DNA of 64,000 bases from Dehalococcoidia bacterium. Its GTDB lineage: Bacteria; Chloroflexota; Dehalococcoidia; UBA2979. Below the pieces are notes generated by a model that saw nothing but the letters and a program-made list of their open reading frames with translations, was not told the DNA's origin and did no database searches. The DNA is taken from NCBI GenBank assembly GCA_965262725.1, contig OZ253555.1, positions 517,256 through 581,255 on the forward strand, read 5' to 3'. Shown here piece after piece: positions 4,001-18,780 of the stretch (position 1 is the first letter of the stretch; each line of letters begins with the position of its first letter). The translations under genes were made by a program, and so were the position numbers.

Positions 4001-5989
4001 GCTCACCGCGTACGTGAGCGTGTCGCCGCGGTCCGGGTCCGCGGCCGCGACGGGCGCACCGATAGCTGCGCCCGCGGGCGTGTTTTCCGGTACGGCGCGC
4101 TCGCCGCTCTCGCCGGGCGGGAACGTCGGCGCCTCGTTCACGTCGGTCACGGTGATGGTCACGGGCAGCTCGCTGGCCCTGCTCCCGTCGAAGGCGCGCA
4201 CGATGACTCGATAGACGTTGTCTCCGTCGGCGTCCGCCGGGAGCTCATAGTCCAGGATCTCCGCCGTCAGCAGCTGACCGGACGCCGGGACGATGTCGAA
4301 GAGCGCGGCATCGCTCCCCACCAGGCTGTAGGTCAGCGTGTCGTCGTCGGGGTCCGTGGCCGTGACCGGCGCACCGAGGGTCGCACGCGGCCCCGTGTTC
4401 TCCACCACCGAACGCGCCGCGGCGCCACCGAACGCCGGCACGCGGTTCTCGCCGACCCTGAGTATCCGGTCCCCGCCGCCGCCGTTCGACGTGGTGACAT
4501 AGAGCGCTCCGTCGGGGCCCATCATCGGGGTCCGGAGCCGGCCGTATGTCCCGTCGAGTTGCGGTACGACGACCTGGCTCACGAGGGCCCCCTCCGGGGT
4601 GAATTCGAAGAGGCGCAGCTTCTGATCCCGCAGCGTGGCCACCGCCAGACGCCCCTCCCAGATCCCCCAGTGGGCGCCCTCAAGGAAGATGCCGCCGCTG
4701 GTGGCAACGGTGGAATTCCCGGACGACCATCTGGCCTGGGCGGCGCCGGGGAACTTCACGAGGTCGGTCATGGGGACGCTCTGGTTGTAGCCGGGCACCG
4801 GATCCCATCCGTAGTTGCCGCCGGCGGCGAGCAGGTTGATCTCGTCGTCAACCGTCGGTCCGTGCTCCACCGACCACATCTGGCTGGTACCGGGACGGAG
4901 CGCCAGGCCCTGCACGTTGCGGTGGCCGTAGGTGTAGATGAGGGGTGAGGCGGGGAACGGATTCCCCGGTGCCCCGGCGCCCGTCATGGCGTCGACGCGG
5001 AGGATCTTCCCGCCGAGCGAGTTCAGGTTCTGGGGAACCGTCCCGGTTCGCGCGTCGCCGGTCGCGATCCAGAGGTAGCCCCGCGGACCGAAGCGCAGCC
5101 GGCAGCCGCCGTGGGTGCTGGCCGTGGGGATGTCTCCAACGAGGGGGTCGGCCACCCGCGTCGCCACGGCGTAGGCGGCGTCGATGGTCCAGGCGACGAC
5201 CTGCACTTCCGGACCGGTATGGCTCTGGCAGGTGTAGAAGCGCCGGTTGGTGGAGAAGCGGGGATCGACGACGATCGCCATCAGCCCGACCTCGCCCCCG
5301 ACGAACAGGTCGCTGACATCGGCGGAGATGGTCTGGACGGTGCCGTCGGGGAGGCGGCTGCTCAGCACGCCTGAGCGCTGGGTGAACAACATCGTCCCGT
5401 CGGGCGTGAAGGCGATGTCCCACGGGATGGACAGGCCCGAGACGAGCGTGGTGACGCGGATGTCGGGCGGGGAAGCCTCGAGCGTGGAGGCGCCCTGCGC
5501 GCTCTCGCCGGAAGCACTCTCGTCGCGGTAGCCGGTCCGCGTGACGCCGTGGTCGGAAGTGGCGCCGGCCTCGGGGTCTCCTCCGGTGATGCCGGCGCCA
5601 CCGCCGGGCTCTTCCCCGGGCTGTCCCGTCGTCCCCCGCAGCAGTGGGCTGACCCTGGAGTCGTCCGTGCCGGTCGACGGGCCGGGCGTGTCCGGGGCAC
5701 CGTCGGCGAGCGCCGGAGCGGCGACCGCGGTGAGCGCGGCGACGAGCAGCAGCAGGGCGACGCCGACACCCGCACGGCGCCGGGAATGCGAGAGTCGCTC
5801 TGTCGCGATCACCCCGGCTGCTCCAGCTCCGATACTCGCCCGATACAGAGAAGCGCCCCCGTCGCCCGGTCCCGCACCAGGAAGATGAAGCGCGGGCCAA
5901 CGGTCAGCGTATCCCCACCGCGCCCCCGCAGCGGGTCGCGAACGAGTCAGGCGCCGATAGAGCCGGTGCCGCCGGTCATGAAGTGACAC
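1061..5989 (-). CDS. Giant secreted multidomain protein: signal peptide, PQQ/sorbosone-dehydrogenase-like beta-propeller, multiple cadherin-like repeats, Gly-rich linker, WSDG beta-propeller-like repeats, tandem C-terminal Cys-containing domain
   Basis: 1642 aa ORF; hydrophobic signal (RRRAGVGVALLLLVAALTAVAAPALA), so the real start is probably an internal GTG near 5810. SGDH-like block (GLSIPWDIAFTPDG...YTYGHRNVQGLA). Repeated VNEAP / DPD.DTLTY cadherin-type modules. Four W(S/I)WSDG..W(I/V).D blades. C-terminal ~85-aa domain present twice. Confidence 0.85.
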   Translation of the reverse strand: MSLHDRRHRLYRRLTRSRPAAGARWGYADRWPALHLPGAGPGDGGASLYRASIGAGAAGVIATERLSHSRRRAGVGVALLLLVAALTAVAAPALADGAPDTPGPSTGTDDSRVSPLLRGTTGQPGEEPGGGAGITGGDPEAGATSDHGVTRTGYRDESASGESAQGASTLEASPPDIRVTTLVSGLSIPWDIAFTPDGTMLFTQRSGVLSSRLPDGTVQTISADVSDLFVGGEVGLMAIVVDPRFSTNRRFYTCQSHTGPEVQVVAWTIDAAYAVATRVADPLVGDIPTASTHGGCRLRFGPRGYLWIATGDARTGTVPQNLNSLGGKILRVDAMTGAGAPGNPFPASPLIYTYGHRNVQGLALRPGTSQMWSVEHGPTVDDEINLLAAGGNYGWDPVPGYNQSVPMTDLVKFPGAAQARWSSGNSTVATSGGIFLEGAHWGIWEGRLAVATLRDQKLRLFEFTPEGALVSQVVVPQLDGTYGRLRTPMMGPDGALYVTTSNGGGGDRILRVGENRVPAFGGAAARSVVENTGPRATLGAPVTATDPDDDTLTYSLVGSDAALFDIVPASGQLLTAEILDYELPADADGDNVYRVIVRAFDGSRASELPVTITVTDVNEAPTFPPGESGERAVPENTPAGAAIGAPVAAADPDRGDTLTYAVSGAGADPFEIVSTTGQLRTVHPLDYETRTSYSFFVSVSDGTDAGGHPDPATDASIAVTVRVGQVNEAPDIGGAPGITVAEGGGLFAGSFTATDPESDRIGWSLAGSDSGDLTIERGALRLRETPDYENPTDANRDNVYQVTVRASDGTSEDTLAVTVTVTNVDEAGRVLLSSLQPQVDTALTSTLADPDGVSGAITWSWERSLNRTSGWTPIGGATSRTYTPGATDLHHYLRVAASYGDREGSGKSADRVSESVRAVPVSNSAPAFPPTETRGRSVPENTPPDRDIGARVEATDPGDTLTYRLGGADAASFGIDERTGQLWTRAPLNHESRNHHTVSVTATDPSLASATIAVTITVTDVNEAPEFPSTESGVRAVPKTAEPGAHVGAPVAATDPDAGDTLVYTLSGTDAASFGIDAGTGQIVVGAGVVLDPAIRPSYAVSVTARDPSGDSDGIDVTITTGEQATAPRIAIGGGGGGGPSGPSPSILDFEWNVTRDIEELDPDNDEPTGSWSDGATLWIAENGQGADDAIYAYDVTSGERVEDREFELDETNLAPRGVWSDRSTIWISDSGQEKLFAHDLESGERTAEYALDSSNDAPHGIWSDGVTVWVSDHITKWLHAYRLPARPAAPVAEDAEPTPLERISGEEFRKLSRASNNSPRGLWSDGDVMYVADASDGRVYSYNMPDAADARLASLSLSGVDFGEFSPLRYDYASDTIPDGNIATLTAAPAQPGASVGIDPPDHDGDPENGYHVRLLPGREITITVTSPDGTRTRVYRLILGEEEAAGPAPVCLRGEVAVGFSFLTYAGGSVEDLVPCAAGRQVTALYATHDGAVVPYILGAPDFVNRSFRELYAGGLPADTPLLARSDGPSSPDTGGGRPRDEGGAEPRPECLHGVVAAGFSLVLYEGGSAAELVVCAEGRHVAALYALDDGAFVPLILGAPDFVNRSFRELYPDGLPAATPLLAKSDGPPEAGTDGGGDR
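1120..1640. repeat. Tandem direct repeat (~255 bp x2) encoding the duplicated C-terminal domain of the minus-strand giant protein
   Basis: Near-identical nucleotide blocks (gtagagctcgcggaaggatcggttcacgaagtccggcgccccgag...) occur twice in tandem; protein repeats are PVCLRGEVAVGFSFLTYAGG...FVNRSFRELY and PECLHGVVAAGFSLVLYEGG...FVNRSFRELY. Confidence 0.8.
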
Positions 5990-5990
5990 A

Positions 5991-7174
5991 TCACATCTGC
6001 GGACGCAGTTCCGGGTGCTTGAGACCCGTACCTGTGTTGAACAGCACGATCCGCTCCTCGGGCTGGATCGTTCCTCCCGCTATCAGCAGTTCGAGCCCGA
6101 CGAGCGTCGATGCGCCCTCGGGGCAGGCGTCGATCCCCTCGGTGCGGCCGAAGCGGCGCATCGCGGGCACGATCGACTCGTCGGGGATGGCGACTGCTGC
6201 GCCACCGCTCTCGCGCAGGGTGCGCAGGATCAGGTCGTCGGCGAAGGGGCGGGCACACGAATGCCGGGCGCCACCGTCGCCGCGTTGTCCCACGGCTCGG
6301 CGCGCTCGTCGCCCCTGTCCCAGGCGCGCACGATCGGTGCGCAGCCGTCGGACTGCACAACGCACATGCGAGGCCGGTCGGTGCCGATCAGCCCCATCGT
6401 CTCCAGTTCCTCGAACGCCTTCCACATCCCGATCAGCCCGGTCCCACCGCCGGTCGGATAGAGCACCACGTCCGGCAGCTCGCCATCGAGTTGCTCCCAG
6501 AGCTCGTAACCCATCGTCTTCTTGCCCTCGGTGCGGTACGGCTCCCTGAGCGTCGACATCTCGAACCAGCCGTGCTCGCGGCAGCCCTCGGCGATGAGTC
6601 GCCCGGCGTCGTTGATCAGCCCGTCGACAAGCTGGAGATCGGCGCCAAGGTTCAGCACCTCCCGGATGATCGCCGCCGGGGTGTCGACAGGCATCGCGAC
6701 GTGGGCGGTCATGCCGCTATGGGCCGCGTAGGCAGCGGCGGCGGCGCCGGCGTTGCCCGCGGTCGGTATGCCGATGTCGGTCACGCCGAGGCGCCTCGCC
6801 ATCGCCATCGCGGCGGCGAGGCCGCGCGCCTTGAACGATCCGGTCGGGTTACCGCCCTCGTCCTTTACCAGCAGATCGCTGCAACCGAGTTCCGCACCGA
6901 GCCGCGGCGCGGCAAGGAGCGGAGTCATGCCCTCGCCGAGGGACACCAAGCCCACCAGCTCGCTGGCAGGCAGTACCTCGGCGTAGCGCCACATCGAGGC
7001 CTCGCGCCCGCCCAGGGCCTCGCGTGTGAGCGTCTCCCTCGCGCCGTCGAGGTCGTAGCGCGCGAACAGAGCGCGGCCACACTGGCGACAGATCGTCTGC
7101 AGCTCGTCGCACTCGCAACGCGCGCCGCAGATGTCGATCGCCAGGGTCATTGATCCACGCGTCGCCACGGTCAT
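5991..7174 (-). pseudogene. thrC: Threonine synthase (thrC), 5'-truncated by IS21 and carrying an internal frameshift near 6260-6280
   Basis: ORF 6230..7174 carries the PLP motif GSFKARG and an N-terminal CxxCG...CxxCG zinc ribbon. The C-terminal part (FADDLILRTLRESGG...FNTGTGLK) continues in another frame (ORF 5991..6425). The first annotated Met codons lie inside the IS21 terminal repeat. Confidence 0.75.
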
Positions 7175-7227
7175 TAGACCACCCGGGACGCCGGTAGGCG
7201 GCTTGATATCAGTGAGCGTCTAGCGCG

Positions 7228-8001
7228 TCAATCACCTCCCGTCTGCGCCTCGAGCAGGGCGCGGTGCGGCGAGAGCCGCTGGCGGTAGCTATCGCCCTCG
7301 ATCACGATCTGGTAGCTGGCGTTGGCGAGCCGGTCGAGGGCGCTGTTGCCGAGGATCGGGTCGTCGAAGAGACCCAGCCATTCCTCCACGGCGCGGTTCG
7401 AGGTGATGACGAAGCTGGAGCTGCGGTGGCGCCCGATGACCAGCTCGTAGAGGTCGATGGACTGCTGCGCGCTGAGGCGATGGAGCCCGAGGTCGTCGAG
7501 GATGAGCAGGTCGGGCGCGAGGAAGCTTCGGAAGACCTTCTCGGCCGAGTGGTCGACGCGGGCCTGCGCCATCTCGCGGAAGTAGTGGTCGGCCGGGGCG
7601 AAGCGCACGGTGCGTCCGGAGCGGACGGCTGAGTAGCCGAGCGCCTGGGCCAGGAAGCTCTTGCCGACGCCGACGGGGCCGACGAGCAGGACGTGCTCGC
7701 GGCGATCGAGGAAGTGCAGCGAGAAGGCGGCGTCGAGCAGGCGGCGGTCGAGCCGGATGGCGGCCGCCCAGTCGAAGTCCTCGAGGCGGCAGAGCTGCTC
7801 GAAGCCGGCCTGGCGCAGGCGCAGCTCCAACCGCCCGTGGTCGCGGCGGCTCACCTCGTCGACGAGCAGGATCTGCAGGAAGTCCGCGTAGTCGAGGTGG
7901 TCGCGCCGCGCGAGGGCGATGCGCTCGGGCAGGGTGTCGAGCATACGGCCGAGCTTGAGGCGCTTGAGCAGCGGACGGAGGTCTGAGGTGGTGGCGGTCA
8001 T
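7228..8001 (-). CDS. istB: IS21 helper ATPase IstB
   Basis: Starts MTATTSDLRPLLKRLKLGRMLD; Walker A GPVGVGKSFLAQALG, Walker B LLILDDLG; ATGA overlap with the istA stop. The ORF-track 491-aa extension upstream is a read-through artefact. Confidence 0.9.
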   Translation of the reverse strand: MTATTSDLRPLLKRLKLGRMLDTLPERIALARRDHLDYADFLQILLVDEVSRRDHGRLELRLRQAGFEQLCRLEDFDWAAAIRLDRRLLDAAFSLHFLDRREHVLLVGPVGVGKSFLAQALGYSAVRSGRTVRFAPADHYFREMAQARVDHSAEKVFRSFLAPDLLILDDLGLHRLSAQQSIDLYELVIGRHRSSSFVITSNRAVEEWLGLFDDPILGNSALDRLANASYQIVIEGDSYRQRLSPHRALLEAQTGGD

Positions 8002-9578
8002 CGTGGTGCTCCTGTCGGGGTCTGCGTGCGGGACTGTGCGAAGACGGAGCCCGAGTGGGCGAAGCGCCCCGGAGGTGGCGGCAGCTCGGGCTGGTCTGGG
8101 GTGCTCTCCTGGTCGAGGGCCTCGACGAGGATGCGCTCGAGGCGGCGCACGTCGATGAGGTCGACCTCGAGCGCGCGGCGGCAGGCGGCGTCGAGGCGGT
8201 CGGGGGAGTAGCGCTCGGCGAGCCGGAGGAGCTTGTGGCCCTGCCGCAGCTTCGCCCAGGGCAGGGAGCCCTCGAAGAGACGCTCGGCGTAGGCGCCCAC
8301 GGCCTCCCCCAGCTCGGCGGCGCGGCGCTGTATCCAGTCGGGCGCCCGCCTGGTGTAGGGGGTGAGCTCGGCCGGGTAGTCGTTCGGGTCGGTGGCCCGG
8401 CCGCCCCGGCGCTGGCGCGGGTGGACCTTGATGAGCTGACCGCGGTGGTAGATGCGCACCAGCTTCGAGCCGAGCTGCACCTCGACCTTCTGGCGGGGCG
8501 GGCAGGCCGTGGACGGCACCGAGTACAGCGCGTACTGGCAGGCGATGTGGTGGTCGGGATGGACCGTGGCGGTCCGCCAGTCGGGGACCTCGTAGGGCTC
8601 GCCGTCCCACGGAGCGAGCAGAGGGAGCTCCTCCTCCCGGAAGACCTCGAGCGGCCGGCGGCGGGTCGTGCCGTGGATGCGCTGCCCCGCCACCTCGAGG
8701 CACCAGCTGCGGGCGGCGGAGCGCAGGTCGACGATGTCCCGGAAGTCGCCGCCCTTGAAGAGGCGCTCGCGCACGTAGGGGATGCTGCGCTCGACGCGCG
8801 GCTTGTCGCGGGGATGACGTACGCGCGCCGGGTCGGTGATGAAGCCTCTGTGGCGGGCGTACTCGAGGAAGCCCCGGGTGAGGCGCGGGTGGAGCGCGTC
8901 GGCCCCGGCCACGGCGGCCGGGAAGTTATCGATGACGAGGTAGCGGGGCACGCCCCCGAAGAAGGACCAGGCCTCCTCCAGGCCCTCGATCACGGCGTCC
9001 AGCGTCTGGCTGGTGGTGGGCCACACAAAGCAGTGGCGTGAGTAGCGCCAGACGACGACCAGCGCCCACACCGCGCGCCGGCGGCCGCTCTCGGGGTCCC
9101 GGATGAAGCCGAGGCGGCCGAAGTCCATCTCCGCCACCTCGCCCGGCGGCCCGTCGTCCATGCGCACGGTCGACGGCAGCCGGTGGCGCCAGCCGCGGCG
9201 CCGGATGAAACGCCGCAGCGTGGTGTAGGAGACCTCGCAGCCTCGTCCGGCGAGGAGCTCCTGGATGCGCGTCAGTTGCAGGCGGTCGGTCTCAAGCCAG
9301 CGCTCGATCTGCTCCGCCCAGGGCGAGAGCAGCTCCTCGCTCGGCGCCTCGACCTGCCGCGGGCCGGAGAGGCTCAGCGTCGCCAGCGCGGCGAGCTGCT
9401 CCTCACTCGGCTCGGGACCGCCCGGCGTGAGGCCGGCCGCCTCGGCCGCCTCGACGTAGCGGCGCACCGTCACGCGCGATAGCCCCGTGCCGCTGGCGAT
9501 GCGGCGCTGGCTGAGCCCCGCCTGCCAGCGTCGAATGATCTCCTGGATCTCCACCCCGTGTACCTCCCGGTAGGCCAT
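7998..9578 (-). CDS. istA: IS21 transposase IstA
   Basis: Starts MAYREVHGVEIQEIIRRWQAG (HTH) followed by a DDE integrase-like core; typical IstA size (~527 aa). Confidence 0.9.
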   Translation of the reverse strand: MAYREVHGVEIQEIIRRWQAGLSQRRIASGTGLSRVTVRRYVEAAEAAGLTPGGPEPSEEQLAALATLSLSGPRQVEAPSEELLSPWAEQIERWLETDRLQLTRIQELLAGRGCEVSYTTLRRFIRRRGWRHRLPSTVRMDDGPPGEVAEMDFGRLGFIRDPESGRRRAVWALVVVWRYSRHCFVWPTTSQTLDAVIEGLEEAWSFFGGVPRYLVIDNFPAAVAGADALHPRLTRGFLEYARHRGFITDPARVRHPRDKPRVERSIPYVRERLFKGGDFRDIVDLRSAARSWCLEVAGQRIHGTTRRRPLEVFREEELPLLAPWDGEPYEVPDWRTATVHPDHHIACQYALYSVPSTACPPRQKVEVQLGSKLVRIYHRGQLIKVHPRQRRGGRATDPNDYPAELTPYTRRAPDWIQRRAAELGEAVGAYAERLFEGSLPWAKLRQGHKLLRLAERYSPDRLDAACRRALEVDLIDVRRLERILVEALDQESTPDQPELPPPPGRFAHSGSVFAQSRTQTPTGAPR

Positions 9579-9649
9579 CGCTGCTCCCTCCGCTGGGGAT
9601 GCAGGCGATGGTGGCCGTACCGGCGACCCGGGCGGGCAGGAGTCCCTGA

Positions 9650-9735
9650 CGGGGTGGATCAATGACCCTGGCGAAGTGGATCAATGACCCTGGCGATCTG
9701 GCGATTTCGTGGTCTATAGACCTTGGCGATTCACA
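9650..9735. repeat. IS21 right-end multiple terminal repeats (putative transposase binding sites)
   Basis: Two tandem copies of GTGGATCAATGACCCTGGCGA plus GGTCTATAGACCTTGGCGA; related copies in inverted orientation at the left end (7132-7180). Confidence 0.7.
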
Positions 9736-9742
9736 CCGCAGA

Positions 9743-9881
9743 TCGAGCACTCGAGGTGCGTGAGCGTGGATGCTGGCAGCTTTGTCAGCGTCTCAACCTC
9801 CAGGCGGCGGCGGTGCTCGGGCGCGCGCGAGGTGAGGCCCCCACGTCGGTTGTTGAACGCGAGCGGCTCCGCGGTCCGCAT
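9743..9881 (-). pseudogene. thrC: Displaced 5' fragment of thrC (N-terminal leader up to the first zinc-ribbon cysteines)
   Basis: The minus-strand frame ...EVETLTKLPASTLTHLECSICG joins exactly onto ...ARCECDELQTICRQCG of the 3' part once IS21 and one TSD copy are removed. Confidence 0.55.
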
Positions 9882-10221
9882 CTCCACATCGGCGCATAGA
9901 ATCGCAGCACGGCCGACTTCCGCCTGCACAGGACGGTTGGGCGAGTATGGTGCCACGAATCCGCCCGGCTCTGCGCCTGCGGCTCCCGGTCCTCCTCGGC
10001 GCCGGTGCACTCCTGAGGGTCGGCCTGTCACGCGGAGTCGGGACGTCGGGGGCGTCATCATCACGCACCCGTTCGACCCAGCTGCGACTCAGCAGGGTGG
10101 GCTCGGCTGCGGTTCCGGCGACGCAGGGCTGGCGCGGCGAGTTGCGGCGACATCGGTCGCTTCGCGCCCGCCGCGCCAGCCGTCGCCCTCGGCGGTTGCC
10201 ATTGGCGAGGTGGGCCGCAGG

Positions 10222-11175
10222 ATGCACAGATGGACCGGTACACTGACCGGACGACCCGGCGTCGACTGCGACAGCCCGGTCGAGGCCGGCTCCCCCGATG
10301 CGAGTGAGGATCGGAGCGTGACCCTGCCGTTCGGCACAGCCAGCGAGCGAGGCCCGGCGACGCGATGGGCCGCCGGAGCAGTGCCCGGGCTCCTGGGCGC
10401 GGTGTTGTTCCTCGCAAGCTGCAGCTCGACCGAGCCGGCCGGCGCGCCGGCACCGGCCCCTCCACGAGCCGCCACCACCACTGCGAGCGCTCAGCCGGCG
10501 ATCGTGCCCGCTCGCGCGCCGTCTGGCGCCGCCCCCCTCGCGAGCCCGCCACCCACCACCGCTGCGCCTGCCCTGTCGCCGACGCCGCAGCCCGGGGCAG
10601 GTTCAGCACCCGGGGGATCGCAGTCGCTCGGGCGGGATGATGGTTCGGCCGTCGAGCCGGGGGCCGGAGGCACCAAGTCCGGCGACGCCCGGCAGGTGAA
10701 GGGCGACTCGGCCTCCACGCCCGCCACGGGGACCGTCTACACCTGGCAGGACGGCGACCGCACCGAGCGGGTGCTGCTGCAGGCCGACCTCGTCCTGCAG
10801 AGCAATGAGGAGAACCGGAACGATGATGAGGTCGTCACCCGCGGCGACACCGCGAGCGTCGTTCGCGCGCAGCCCCGGCATGATGAGGCCGACACCGATC
10901 CCGTCTTCCGCTCGCCGGCCGGCGACCTGATGACGCTGCCCGGCGGGGTGCTGCTCGCCCTCGACGCCGGCTGGGACCAGGCGAGGGTGGACCGCTTCTT
11001 CTCGGACAACGACATCGACCGGAGCCGCGTGGAGGGGCGGGACTTCGCCGTCAACGCCTTCTTCGTGACGACTCAGCCCGGATTCCCCTCGCTCACCCTG
11101 GCCAACGAACTCGCCGCACAGGACGGCGTGTTGATCTCCAGCCCGAACTGGCGAACGGAAGCCGTTCTCCGGTGA
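10222..11175 (+). CDS. Secreted lipoprotein, hypothetical (possible partner of the downstream giant protease)
   Basis: ATG at 10222; lipobox LFLASCSS; Pro/Ala-rich linker; C-terminal globular part; stop overlaps the GTG start of the giant ORF (translational coupling). Confidence 0.55.
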   Translation: MHRWTGTLTGRPGVDCDSPVEAGSPDASEDRSVTLPFGTASERGPATRWAAGAVPGLLGAVLFLASCSSTEPAGAPAPAPPRAATTTASAQPAIVPARAPSGAAPLASPPPTTAAPALSPTPQPGAGSAPGGSQSLGRDDGSAVEPGAGGTKSGDARQVKGDSASTPATGTVYTWQDGDRTERVLLQADLVLQSNEENRNDDEVVTRGDTASVVRAQPRHDEADTDPVFRSPAGDLMTLPGGVLLALDAGWDQARVDRFFSDNDIDRSRVEGRDFAVNAFFVTTQPGFPSLTLANELAAQDGVLISSPNWRTEAVLR

Positions 11176-14100
11176 GCCGTCGGTCGCTGCTCGCGGCCCT
11201 CGCCGCGCTGTGTCTCATGGTCGGGGCGGGGCATGTGGAGGCGAGCACGCCCGGCGCGCCCACGGTCGGCACCATCACCGCCACCACCAACTCGCTCACC
11301 GTGCCGTGGACCGCGCCCTCGGACAATGGTGGTTCGGTGATCGTCGCCTACGACCTGCGCTACATCCGCACCGACGCGACGCCTGCGCGCAAGGCGGACG
11401 ACGCCAACTGGACCGTCGAGGAGGTCTGGACGACGGGCGGCGGCAGCCTCGAGACCGAGGTGAAGGATCTCTCCGACGGCGTGGAGTTCGACGTGCAGGT
11501 GCGCGCCGACAACCAGAACGGCGACATCGGCGAGTGGTCGCAGACCGCCACCGGCACCACCACCGACCACGGCGACAGCACCTCCTCGGCGACATCACTC
11601 ACGCTGGGCGGCTCGGTGATCGGGCGGATCGAGCCCGCAAACGACGCGGACGTGTTCCAGATCGTCCTCACGAGCGCCGCCGACCTCTGGGTCTACGCCG
11701 ACGGCGAGCTCGACTCGGTGGGCGAGCTGCTGGACTCGAGAGGCTCGCTCATCACGCGGGACCCCCGGAACGACCGGCTCGGTCCGCGAGACGGGTTCAG
11801 CCTCCGGCGGGAGGTCGAGTCGGGAACCTACTACGTTCGCGTCATCAGCTACCGGGGCTTCGCCTCAGGCTCGTACACCATCCACGCCCGCGCCGCGATC
11901 GACCCCGGCGACAGCGCGGCCACGGCGACGACCGTCACGCTCGACTCGGTGACGCCCGGACGCATCGACGCCCGGTCGGACGAGGACTACTTCAAGCTGG
12001 TCCTCGGCAGCGCCGCCGAGATCTGGGTCATGGCCGCCGGCGACCTGGACACCTACGGCGAGCTGCTCCGCGAGAACGAGACTGTCCTGGCCGAGAACGA
12101 TGACGGTGGGCTGTCGGGCAACAGCCTGGGATTCGTGCTGAGTCGGGAGCTGGCGGCGGGAACCTACTACATCCGCGTCAGCGGCGTCGGCTTCGAGCCG
12201 ACCGGAACCTACGCGCTGCATGTGCGGACGGTCGTCGATCCCGGCGGCGACGCGGCTACCGCGGCGCCGCTCACCCTCGGCGCGCCCGAAAGCGGCCGAA
12301 TCTCCTCGTCGAGTGACGAGGACTTCTTCAGCCTCACGCTGGCAGAGGACACCTACGTCTTTGTCTACGCCCTGACCCTCGGTAGCGCGCTGCCGCTCAC
12401 GGCGACGGTCCTCGACGGGACGGATACTCCCGTGTCCCTGACGCAGGTCATTCCCCACTCGACCTGGGCCGCCAACGGCAAAGAGGAGGTGAGCGTCTCG
12501 CTCTGGGGGAAGCTGGACGCCGGGACGTACCACATTCAGGTGCGGCGCTCCGGCAGCAGGAACGGGGCCTACCTCCTCCACGCCCTCGCCTCGCCCTACA
12601 ACCAGGCGCTTGCGCGGTGCACCGCTCTGACCACGCCGGAGAGCGACCCCTGGTACGGATGCCAGTGGCACCTCGGCAACACCGGCCAGTTCCCCGGCGG
12701 CGCCGGGCACGACATCAACGTCGAGAGCGTCTGGGCGGGAGGAAACAAGGGCTCGGGCGTGAACATCGCCCTCGTCGACGACGGCCTCCAGAGCGACCAC
12801 GTCGACCTGAGCGCGAACGTCATCGCCGCACGCAACCGCGACTATCAGGGCAACAACAACGTCTTCGATCCGCTCGACACCCACGGCACGGCCGTCGCCG
12901 GCCTCATCGCCGCGCCGGAGAATGACATCGGCGTGCGGGGCGTGGCCCCCGAGGCACGCATCTACGCCTACAACCTGATCACCCACGAGACGTCCACCTC
13001 TGACCATTTGCAAGACGCCATGACGCGCCATCTGCAGGACACGGCCGTCTCCAACAACAGCTGGGGCTTTGTCACGACCGGCCTCCCTCGGGGCTCAGGT
13101 ACGGTCTGGGAGAGTGCGGTCGAGCGGGGAGTGACGGAGGGGTTCGGAGGCAAGGGCATCGTCTACGTCTGGGCAGCCGGCAACGGGCACCCGGAGAACG
13201 GCAACTCCAACTTCGACGGCCTCGCGAACTTCTACGCGGTCACAGCCGCCTGCGCGGTCGGCTACGACGACCGCCGGAGCGCGTACTCCGAGATGGGCGC
13301 CAACCTCTGGATCTGCGCGCCCTCCAACAGCGGTCGCTACGGCCTGCCGCGGATTGCGACGACCCACCAGGTCGACCGCTACCGCGAGGACTTCGGCGGC
13401 ACCTCGGCAGCCACGCCCATCGTCTCGGGCGTGGTTGCCCTCATGCGCGCCGCCAACGCGGACCTCACGTGGCGCGACGTCAAGCTCATCCTCGCCGCGT
13501 CCGCGCGCCAGAACGACTCCGGGAACGGCGGGTGGGAGCAGGGCGCGCTCCGGTACGGCTCGACGACCGACCGCTACTCGTTCAATCACGAGTACGGCTT
13601 CGGCATGGTCGACGCCGCAGCCGCCGTCGCCCTCGCCGACGGCTGGACGATCGTCCCGAAGCTACGGGAATCCGGGGCCGAGTCGGGAGACATCGGACTC
13701 GCGATTCCCGACGCACCCGACGTGGGCGCACCCACCGCCCTGACCGACAGCCTGACGCTCGACTCCCATGTCGCATTCGTCGAGTTCATGGAGATCGAGA
13801 TCACCCTGGAACACAACTGGTTCCGCGATCTCCAGATCGAGCTCGTGTCGCCGGCCGGCGCCGTCTCCGTGCTCTCCGTGCCCGCCCTCTCCGTCCTCCT
13901 GAGGGGGTCGTTCGACGGCAGCCATCGCTTCGGGTCGGCCAGGCACCTGGGCGAGAAGGCCGAGGGAACCTGGACGCTGCGCGTCACGGACACCCTCCAC
14001 GACGATACGGGCACGCTCACGTCGTGGAAGCTCACGGCCTACGGCCACGGGTACGTCCCGATCTCCCCCGACATCGATGAGGTGGTCGAGGGCCCCGGTT

Positions 14101-17100: not shown

Positions 17101-18780
17101 GGCCGACGATCGTGTTCGGGGGTGGTGGGGGCGGCGGCCCCTCGGGCCCGACGCCCAGCGAGATCGAGTTCGAGTGGAACGTCACCCGCGACATCGAGGA
17201 GCTCGACGGCGGCCACGATGTCCCCACCGGCTCCTGGTCCGACGGCGCGACGCTCTGGCTCGCCGAGAACGGCGACGGCGCCGACGACGCGGTCTACGCC
17301 TACGACCTCGCCACGGGCGAACGCGTCGAGGAGCTCGAGTTCGAGCTCGACGACGCCAACCTCGCGCCCCGTGGGGTCTGGTCCGACCTCCGCACCATCT
17401 GGATCTCCGACAGCGGCAAGGACAAGCTCTTCGCACACGACCTCGCAAGCGGCGAGCGCCTCCCCGACTCCGATCTCGCACTGCACCCCGACAACGACGA
17501 CCCGCGCGGCATCTGGTCGAACGGCCCGACGCTGTGGGTGCTCGATGGCCGCGACAACGCCCTCTACGGCTACGACCTGGAGAGCGGCGAGCTGCTCGCG
17601 GGGTACGCCCTGGACGACGCCAACGACGACCCGCACGGCATCTGGTCCGACGGCACCTCCGTCTGGGTCTCCGATGACGTCGCCAAGCGCCTCTTCGCCT
17701 ACCGCCTGCCCTCGCTCGAGGAGGAGGACACGAGCGCGGACGAGGAAGAGGACCTCGAGCTCGCGCGCGTGCGCGATGAGGAGTTCTGGAGGCTGAGCCG
17801 GGCCAGCAACAACAGCCCGCGCGGTCTCTGGTCCGACGGCGACGTGATGTACGTCGCCGACTCCAGCGACGGCAGGGTCTACAGCTACAACATGCCGGAC
17901 GGGATCGACGCCCGGCTGGTATCGCTTGCGCTCAGCGATGTCGAGATCGGCGAGTTCTCACCCGGCCAGACGGAATACGAGGGCGTCGCGAGTGAGGGCG
18001 CTACCGAGACGACGGTCGAGGCGGCCGCGGCGCGCCGCACGGCGGTCGCCATCGACCCCCCCGACGCGGACGAGGTCGCCGACGGCCACCAGGTGGCGCT
18101 GGACGGACTCGATGAGATCACGGTGACCGTGACCTCTCCCGACGAGAGCCGCAGGGGGGTCTACCTCGTGCGCATCGGCGCTGCGGCCGAGGCGGAGCGG
18201 TCGGCGGCGCCCTGCCTGAGCGGCGCCGTGGCGGTGAGCTTCAGCATCCTCATCTACGAGGGGGGCGGCATCGGCGACCTGGTCGGCTGCGCGGAGAGCC
18301 GCCACGTCACGGCGCTCTACGCGCTCGAGGGCGGCGCCTACGTGCCCTACATCCTCGGGGCGCCCCAGTTCGTGAACAGGCCCTTCATCGAGCTGTACGC
18401 GGAGGGCGTCCCGGCCGTGACGCTCTTCATCGCCGGAAGCGACGGACCGGCCACGGCCGACCCGGCGAGCGACGGCGGCGCGGCGCAGTCCTGGCCGGAG
18501 TGCCTGCGCGGCGAGATCGCCACGGGCTTCAGCCTCGTGCTCTACGAGGGCGGGAGCGTCGAGGAGGTCGGCGCCGTGCGTGCAGGGCCGCGGCGTTACG
18601 GCGCTCTACGCGCTCGAGGGCGGCGTCTACGCGGCGTACATCCTCGGGGCGCCCGAGTTCGTGAATCGGCCGTTCTTCGAGCTGTTCGCGGACGGCCTGG
18701 CCCCGATGACACCGCTGATCGCCAAGAGCGAGGGGCCGCCGGCCGCGGTCGCGGATCGCGGGGACGTGCCCGACAACTGA
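11172..18780 (+). CDS. Giant secreted subtilisin-like (S8) protease with FN3, 4x PPC, P-domain, many cadherin-like / VCBS-like repeats, WSDG propeller-like repeats and tandem C-terminal Cys domain; apparent frameshift near 18570-18590
   Basis: Signal peptide MSRRSLLAALAALCLMVGAGHVEA. S8 triad motifs DDGLQSDH, HGTAVAGLIAA, GTSAATPIVSGVVALM; P-domain DLQIELVSPAGAVSVL. The ORF-track 2839-aa frame becomes Arg-rich junk after ~18580, while ORF 18580..18780 (+1 frame) continues the homologous domain (VTALYALEGGVYAAYILGAPEFVNRPFFELF) and stops at 18780. Confidence 0.8.

Follow-up and report, generated by a model that had tools for sequence, protein, structure and literature searches.

The locus considered here raises a simple question: has the threonine synthase gene (thrC) of an uncultured Dehalococcoidia bacterium been interrupted recently by an insertion sequence (IS), and, if so, what is left of the gene? 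It lies in a stretch of 64,000 nucleotides, hereafter the window, which was taken from contig OZ253555.1 of GenBank assembly GCA_965262725.1 (positions 517,256 to 581,255 of the forward strand); all coordinates below are positions in the window. A preliminary description of the window had reported an IS21-family element, with its genes istA and istB, that splits thrC. Comparisons with related genomes indicate, with a probability of about 90%, that the chromosomal thrC received an IS21-family element in its codon 18 by transposition, and that this happened after the split from strains of the same species in which the gene is intact.

The element has a length of 2604 bp (7132-9735) and lies on the minus strand, co-directional with thrC. 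Its boundaries were set by its tips, its inverted repeats, other copies of the element and the empty sites of relatives. It starts with TGTCGATCGCCAGGGTC and ends with GACCTTGGCGATTCACA, which results in TG...CA tips, and the inverted repeats agree at 14 of their first 17 nt. Both tips are directly abutted by the heptamer CCGCAGA (TCTGCGG on the gene strand), at 7125-7131 on the istB side and at 9736-9742 on the istA side. The heptamer occurs 11 times in the window on both strands taken together, and from this number the chance of finding an identical 7-mer next to both tips is about 1e-4. The clean TG...CA termini and the exact 7-bp duplication described earlier were thus recovered upon re-inspection. 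The span given for the element, 7132-9742, was correct at its left boundary; its right edge was not, because the element proper ends at 9735 and the remainder is one copy of the duplication. The in silico excision of 7132-9742 that had been proposed rejoined thrC in a single minus-strand frame (...LTHLECSICGARCECDELQTICRQCG... / ...LTKLPASTLTHLECSICGARCECDELQTICRQCGRALFARYDL...).

Independent evidence for the boundaries comes from relatives without the element. A scan for the locus, with one genome per species, returned 80 loci, and the 14 closest are from Dehalococcoidia/Chloroflexi bins with nucleotide identities of 87-91%. All 14 of these contigs from other species have the uninterrupted sequence GAGTGCTCGATCTGCGGCGCGCG, with a single copy of the 7-mer. 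In addition, a protein search found intact ThrC proteins that are 98-99% identical to the repaired protein of the window, and two contigs of the same species were retrieved, i.e. ERZ25068966 ctg565569 (L090, 2.65 Mb) and ERZ25071132 ctg820293 (L091). Both align to 19979-9736 and to 7132-5604 of the window with 97-99% nucleotide identity, and the two alignments share 8 nt at a single TCTGCGG. Both contain an intact thrC, and the neighbourhood is the same as in the window, with a giant S8-peptidase/cadherin gene and a giant GSDH/cadherin gene as the two flanking genes. The site is therefore uninterrupted, with one 7-mer, in 16 related contigs (two of the same species and 14 of other species), showing that the boundaries of the element are correct; the preliminary description had named wrong boundaries as the point at which it might fail, and had suggested this very comparison. 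Because the empty site is present in contigs of the same species, the insertion post-dates the divergence of the strains, in agreement with the recent insertion that had been claimed. Nothing was found that contradicts the insertion itself. In the proposed mechanism, IstA, aided by IstB, would make cuts that are staggered by 7 bp and join the CA ends, giving rise to the duplication.

To characterize the host gene, the product was analysed after excision of the element and repair of the reading frame (see below). The 395-aa protein reaches 554.7 bits against the threonine synthase model NF006050 (cut-off 303) and 239 bits against Pfam PALP. Its GSFKARG segment aligns with the GSFKDRG of the ThrC structures 6CGQ and 2ZSJ, which represents the Schiff-base lysine motif S-F-K-x-R-G. 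Homology thus assigns thrC to the threonine synthases, which is the predicted activity of its product (O-phosphohomoserine to threonine). The solved ThrC structures (6CGQ, 2ZSJ, 1UIM, and 2D1F) align from residue 62 onward only, and therefore the first ~60 residues are an add-on module. This module contains a CxxC-x12-CxxC motif, which 118 of the 120 best homologues also have. In the AlphaFold model of one orthologue (L012) the N-terminal module is confident and beta-rich, with a mean predicted local distance difference test value of 92.9, and values of 93-97 over residues 11-40. It is predicted to be a Cys4 zinc ribbon; an N-terminal zinc ribbon of threonine synthases was reportedly described by Kaur and Subramanian in 2017 (Cell Cycle 16:1918; cited in PMC5906684). 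The earlier claim that the host gene is a threonine synthase with an N-terminal CxxC...CxxC motif is supported by these results. The gene shares with the NF006050 / PRK08197 threonine synthases the CxxC-x12-CxxC module ahead of a fold-type II pyridoxal phosphate (PLP) domain, as well as a score far over the cut-off. In contrast to them, it is split by the IS and frameshifted, and its conserved TTG/GTG start position is CTG in this species. More distant ThrC matches include Poribacteria.

The start of thrC was set by alignment with the 14 relatives, in which it is TTG or GTG, 8 nt after a conserved GGAGG ribosome-binding site (9797-9801, minus strand, in the window). The corresponding codon of the window is CTG (9786-9788, minus strand). 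A role of this CTG as a third lesion was considered and rejected, because the two intact same-species contigs also have CTG, making it a trait of the species. The start used in this species may be either this CTG or a GTG 56 codons upstream. An in-frame ATG upstream is not conserved and is missing from one of the two same-species contigs (L090). Likewise, the replacement of a His by a Cys (H21C; ARHECDEL to ARCECDEL) was discarded as a sign of decay, as it is found species-wide.

The insertion point lies in codon 18 of the 395 codons of thrC, within the first CxxC knuckle of the Cys4 motif. The 5′ stub (9736-9788, minus strand) comprises codons 1-17 and two bases of codon 18 (LTKLPASTLTHLECSICG). 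It retains LECSICG, after which the frame continues into the IS as VNRQGL* and stops at 9714. The 3′ part (5991-7131, minus strand) extends from codon 18 to the stop and contains the whole PLP catalytic domain, with a break of the frame at 6246-6249. A hybrid open reading frame (ORF) of 314 aa (6230-7174, minus strand) starts with MTVATRGSMTLAIDICG... and consists of 14 codons supplied by the IS end (MTVATRGSMTLAID), thrC codons 16-311 and, at its 3′ end, four out-of-frame codons; the Ile of codon 16 straddles the junction between the IS and the duplication. As a result, LECSICG is changed to LAIDICG, and the downstream piece reads MTVATRGSMTLAID-ICG..., in which the first Cys is gone. The loss of this knuckle Cys had been predicted correctly, as had the displacement of the native 5′ end, which is now, together with its ribosome-binding site, ~2.6 kb away.

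Two further statements of the preliminary description were not supported. The first was that the element splits thrC "after its leader". No Rfam family was detected for several kb on either side (no match at E values up to 1 within 5500-11500, neither a leader nor a riboswitch), and the break is in codon 18 of a protein whose extent was delimited by relatives. The second, according to which thrC would look intact to ORF callers, is wrong. The hybrid ORF is cut short at 314 aa by a 1-bp deletion, which leaves the last 85 codons off-frame, and no gene with the hybrid product was found on record as a called gene.

This deletion is specific for the window. At 6246-6249 (minus strand) the window has CCCC, versus CCCCC in the two same-species contigs, and relatives from other species have either a run of five C or GCCC. 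The last 85 codons (FADDLILRTLRESGG...HPELRPQM) continue in another frame to 5991, and the off-frame residues include many invariant columns, such as E347, G348, P353-G355, G383, G385, and K387. As sequenced, thrC is thus present in three pieces. The odds that the frameshift is a real second lesion rather than a consensus error are about even.

Another 1-bp difference was observed at some distance. At 18570-18587 (CACGCACG-G-CGCC) the window has an extra G, at about 18574, that is missing from both same-species contigs. Because of it, the S8-peptidase/cadherin gene (start at 11172) switches from frame 3 to frame 1 some 70 codons ahead of its native stop near 18780, and the listed 2839-aa ORF that reaches to 19691 is a product of this shift. 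The extra G may be real or a consensus error.

What does the insertion mean for the function of thrC? With 2.6 kb of IS in between, the GGAGG (9801-9797), the start position at 9788, and codons 1-17 with the first CxxC knuckle would be cut off from the remainder of the gene, so that the normal protein can no longer be made. The downstream piece would be transcribable only via read-through from istAB. Scans around the junctions revealed no promoter-like site on either side, and only two terminator-like hits, both of which are inside istA. The two in-frame ATGs of the downstream piece, at 7174 and 7153, fall inside the repeats of the IS end, and neither is preceded by a good ribosome-binding site. 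We regard it as very probable that this copy of thrC is a fresh pseudogene that has lost its function, because the 5′ end is displaced, the first Cys is lost, the frameshift removes the last 85 residues, and the in-frame ATGs lie in the putative IstA-binding repeats without a good ribosome-binding site.

Several observations weigh against a complete loss of function. One homologue (P0099) lacks three of the four Cys, and the solved ThrC structures lack the module altogether; the loss of one Cys need not by itself abolish catalysis. The IS is co-directional with thrC, and transcripts that read through from istAB could include the 3′ part. The frameshift is a change in the length of a homopolymer and could be a sequencing error, and the second isolated 1-bp indel against both same-species contigs (at ~18574) hints at consensus errors. 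Furthermore, some contigs in related assemblies have 2x-4x labels in their names, which probably denote coverage.

The alternative that survives best, although we regard it as improbable, concerns the state of thrC at the time of the insertion. The gene could already have been dispensable or dead, either because the frameshift came first or because it is a PRK08197-type paralogue that coexists with another, housekeeping threonine synthase, so that the insertion was neutral. The frameshift is specific for the window, like the IS, and either of the two events may therefore have come first. The isolated position of thrC between two giant surface-protein genes, next to the truncated stub of a former neighbour, is indicative of a rearranged region, and neither hom nor thrB is found among its neighbours in this species. 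On the other hand, thrC is intact across many related genomes, including those of the same species, with ratios of non-synonymous to synonymous substitution rates (dN/dS) of about 0.1-0.25, and no second thrC was found in the 64-kb window. A long period of relaxed selection on the thrC of the window was also considered. Its dN/dS values against the relatives are 0.16-0.23, compared to 0.09-0.25 among the relatives, and it has nine private substitutions at otherwise invariant positions, mostly conservative ones, versus 0-5 in the others. Both measures are only marginally raised, which fits a recent insertion, and the proposal was rejected.

It is far less likely still that thrC continues to work. 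This would require that read-through from istAB and a start at one of the ATGs in the IS end (7174 or 7153) yield an active enzyme with an altered N-terminus, and that the frameshift is a sequencing error. The geometry would allow it: besides the common direction of the IS and thrC, just 54 nt separate the stop codon of istB from the ATG at 7174 downstream of it, without a terminator-like site in between, and the downstream piece encodes the PLP domain in full (from residue 62). The homologue that exists without most of the Cys4 motif and the two isolated indels, one of them in a homopolymer, point in the same direction. These points are opposed by the conservation of the Cys4 motif in nearly all homologues, by the poor ribosome-binding context of both ATGs, and by the 85 C-terminal residues, with their many invariant columns, that are missing from the ORF as sequenced. 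Finally, a misplacement of a repeated IS inside thrC during assembly is extremely improbable, because, although the IS is multi-copy in these metagenomes and repeats commonly cause misjoins, the two parts of thrC stand on either side of the element in their proper order and orientation, the exact 7-bp duplication is not something that a misjoin produces, and apart from it the flanking sequence is colinear with that of the empty site.

The insertion of the element into a formerly intact thrC thus remains the preferred explanation, and we analysed the element itself in this light. istA (7998-9578, minus strand) encodes a transposase of 526 aa and is intact, as judged from profile and structure matches. 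The protein reaches 216 bits against the NCBIfam model transpos_IS21 (cut-off 160), also matches Pfam rve and Mu-transpos_C_2, and is similar to the structure of IS5376 IstA (8Q4D), with an E value of 1.5e-20 over residues 118-384 only. It has the same length as the IstA proteins of eight other copies with a complete istA, and a single private substitution, V282I; an exact match to it was not found among recorded proteins. istB (7228-8001, minus strand) is also intact and encodes an AAA+ helper ATPase of 257 aa, according to profile matches (Pfam IstB_IS21, 180 bits; NCBIfam IS21_help_AAA, 211 bits, cut-off 200). Its ATG overlaps with the stop codon of istA in the sequence ATGA. The intact transposase genes and the assignment to the IS21 family, both part of the preliminary description, are borne out by these results.

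Target-site duplications of IS21-family elements have lengths of 4-8 bp. The family is further characterized by two genes, ends that are composed of repeated L and R units and finish in CA, and a short target duplication (PMC10122671). The element has the IstA domains, an istB downstream, ends made of repeats that terminate in CA, and a duplication within the size range of the family. With IS21 (plasmid R68.45) and IS5376 (Geobacillus stearothermophilus; IstA structures 8Q4D and 8B4H) it shares the coupled istA, encoding helix-turn-helix, DDE and beta-barrel domains, and istB (AAA+), the TG...CA tips, ends with repeated units of ~21-23 nt, short duplications (4-8 bp for the copies of this element), and a typical length of ~2.6 kb. 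It differs from IS5376 in its only distantly similar IstA, with the match limited to the segment given above, and in its 7-bp duplication, compared to 5 bp for IS5376 in vitro (PMC10122671). Compared to both elements, its istA end has three units with spacings of 33 and 22 nt, and its host belongs to an uncultured Dehalococcoidia lineage.

In a plasmid collection, the best annotated relatives of IstA are actinobacterial. They belong to IS21-family elements with an annotated istA on plasmids of Rhodococcus and Mycobacterium, and cover 98% of IstA, with an identity of only 44-46%. Because the closest annotated relatives are only that similar, the element is, as far as can be judged from protein comparisons, a distinct, new member of the IS21 family, and it is probably one that has so far been unnamed.

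At least nine other contigs, from several ENA assemblies, encode exactly this IstB protein. Seven of these other copies are full-length. They are 96.4-97.8% identical, and their tips, TGTGAATCGCCA...TGGCGATCGACA, are the same as those of the window copy. Duplications are present at five of the seven and have lengths of 4, 5, 7, 7, and 8 bp; the remaining two, in L084 and L086 (around 2268 and 4870), have none, which suggests recombination between copies. An eighth copy aligns from element position 16 onward only, and its tips were therefore left out of the comparison. A ninth copy (L087, 900-4774) is truncated and adjoins another IS21-like element, compatible with a nested or an adjacent insertion. 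Sample ERZ25071132 contains an intact thrC allele (L091) together with several copies of the IS (L081, L083, and L084). The near-identical copies at nine or more different sites and the empty site in the same species are the reasons for the view, drawn from these sequence comparisons, that this family of elements has been mobile in the lineage.

Both ends of the element contain arrays of a repeat unit of ~21 nt, TCGCCAGGGTCATTGATCCAC, three exact copies of which are present in the window, versus 0 expected. The array at the istA end (9654-9735, minus strand) consists of the terminal repeat (9708-9735) and two exact 21-nt copies at 9676-9696 and 9654-9674. The terminal repeat itself holds a diverged copy of the unit at 9709-9729, which completes the three units of this end. 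At the istB end (7132-7185, minus strand), the terminal repeat (7132-7159) contains a unit at 7138-7158 and is followed by a degenerate copy at 7162-7185 with a spacing of 24 nt (unit positions 7162-7182). The istB-side tip (7132-7137) ends with TCGACA on the gene strand, a 5/6 match to TTGACA, and a TATAGA is located at the istA-side end (9714-9719), 17 nt inward of the tip. The joined ends of IS21 in tandem or circular form are reported to make a -35/-10 pair. If the ends of the present element were joined in tandem or as a circle, the TCGACA and the TATAGA would give such a pair.

The neighbourhood of thrC carries traces of an additional rearrangement. A 14-codon stub (MCHFMTGGTGSIGA*; 5925-5989, minus strand) overlaps the stop codon of thrC (TGATG). 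In other species thrC is followed by an NAD-epimerase-like gene, of which the stub is the remnant. The homology with these species breaks off at 5925, and the GSDH/cadherin gene of 1642 aa comes next. The stub was considered as a part of the IS event; this was rejected, because it is also present in both same-species contigs, and the rearrangement is therefore older than the insertion of the IS. The two giant surface-protein genes that flank thrC share a C-terminal module of ~480 aa (1088-2512 and 17277-18777) with ~55% identity.

As a biological event, the insertion is ordinary: a new member of the IS21 family has, by our analysis, disrupted a biosynthetic gene, which raises no new mechanistic question. 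An annotation of the locus should list an IS21-family element and a thrC pseudogene in three pieces, rather than a PLP enzyme of 314 aa. One of the close genomes belongs to the SB066x bin series, which includes sponge-associated Poribacteria (PMC7883664), and the host lineage is likely to be sponge-associated Dehalococcoidia. A more far-reaching reading, which we consider doubtful, would be that the strain has been caught in the process of losing threonine biosynthesis, with the frameshift as a genuine second lesion and a genome devoid of further threonine synthases, and that a spreading IS21-family element drives gene loss at the strain level and dependence on amino acids. The finding would have a bearing on the auxotrophy of symbionts only if the genome has no other threonine synthase. 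Its value lies in offering a clean, dated case of the disruption of a gene at the strain level by a mobile, multi-copy IS in uncultured Dehalococcoidia, for which the filled site is documented together with its empty counterpart in the same species and with further copies of the element.

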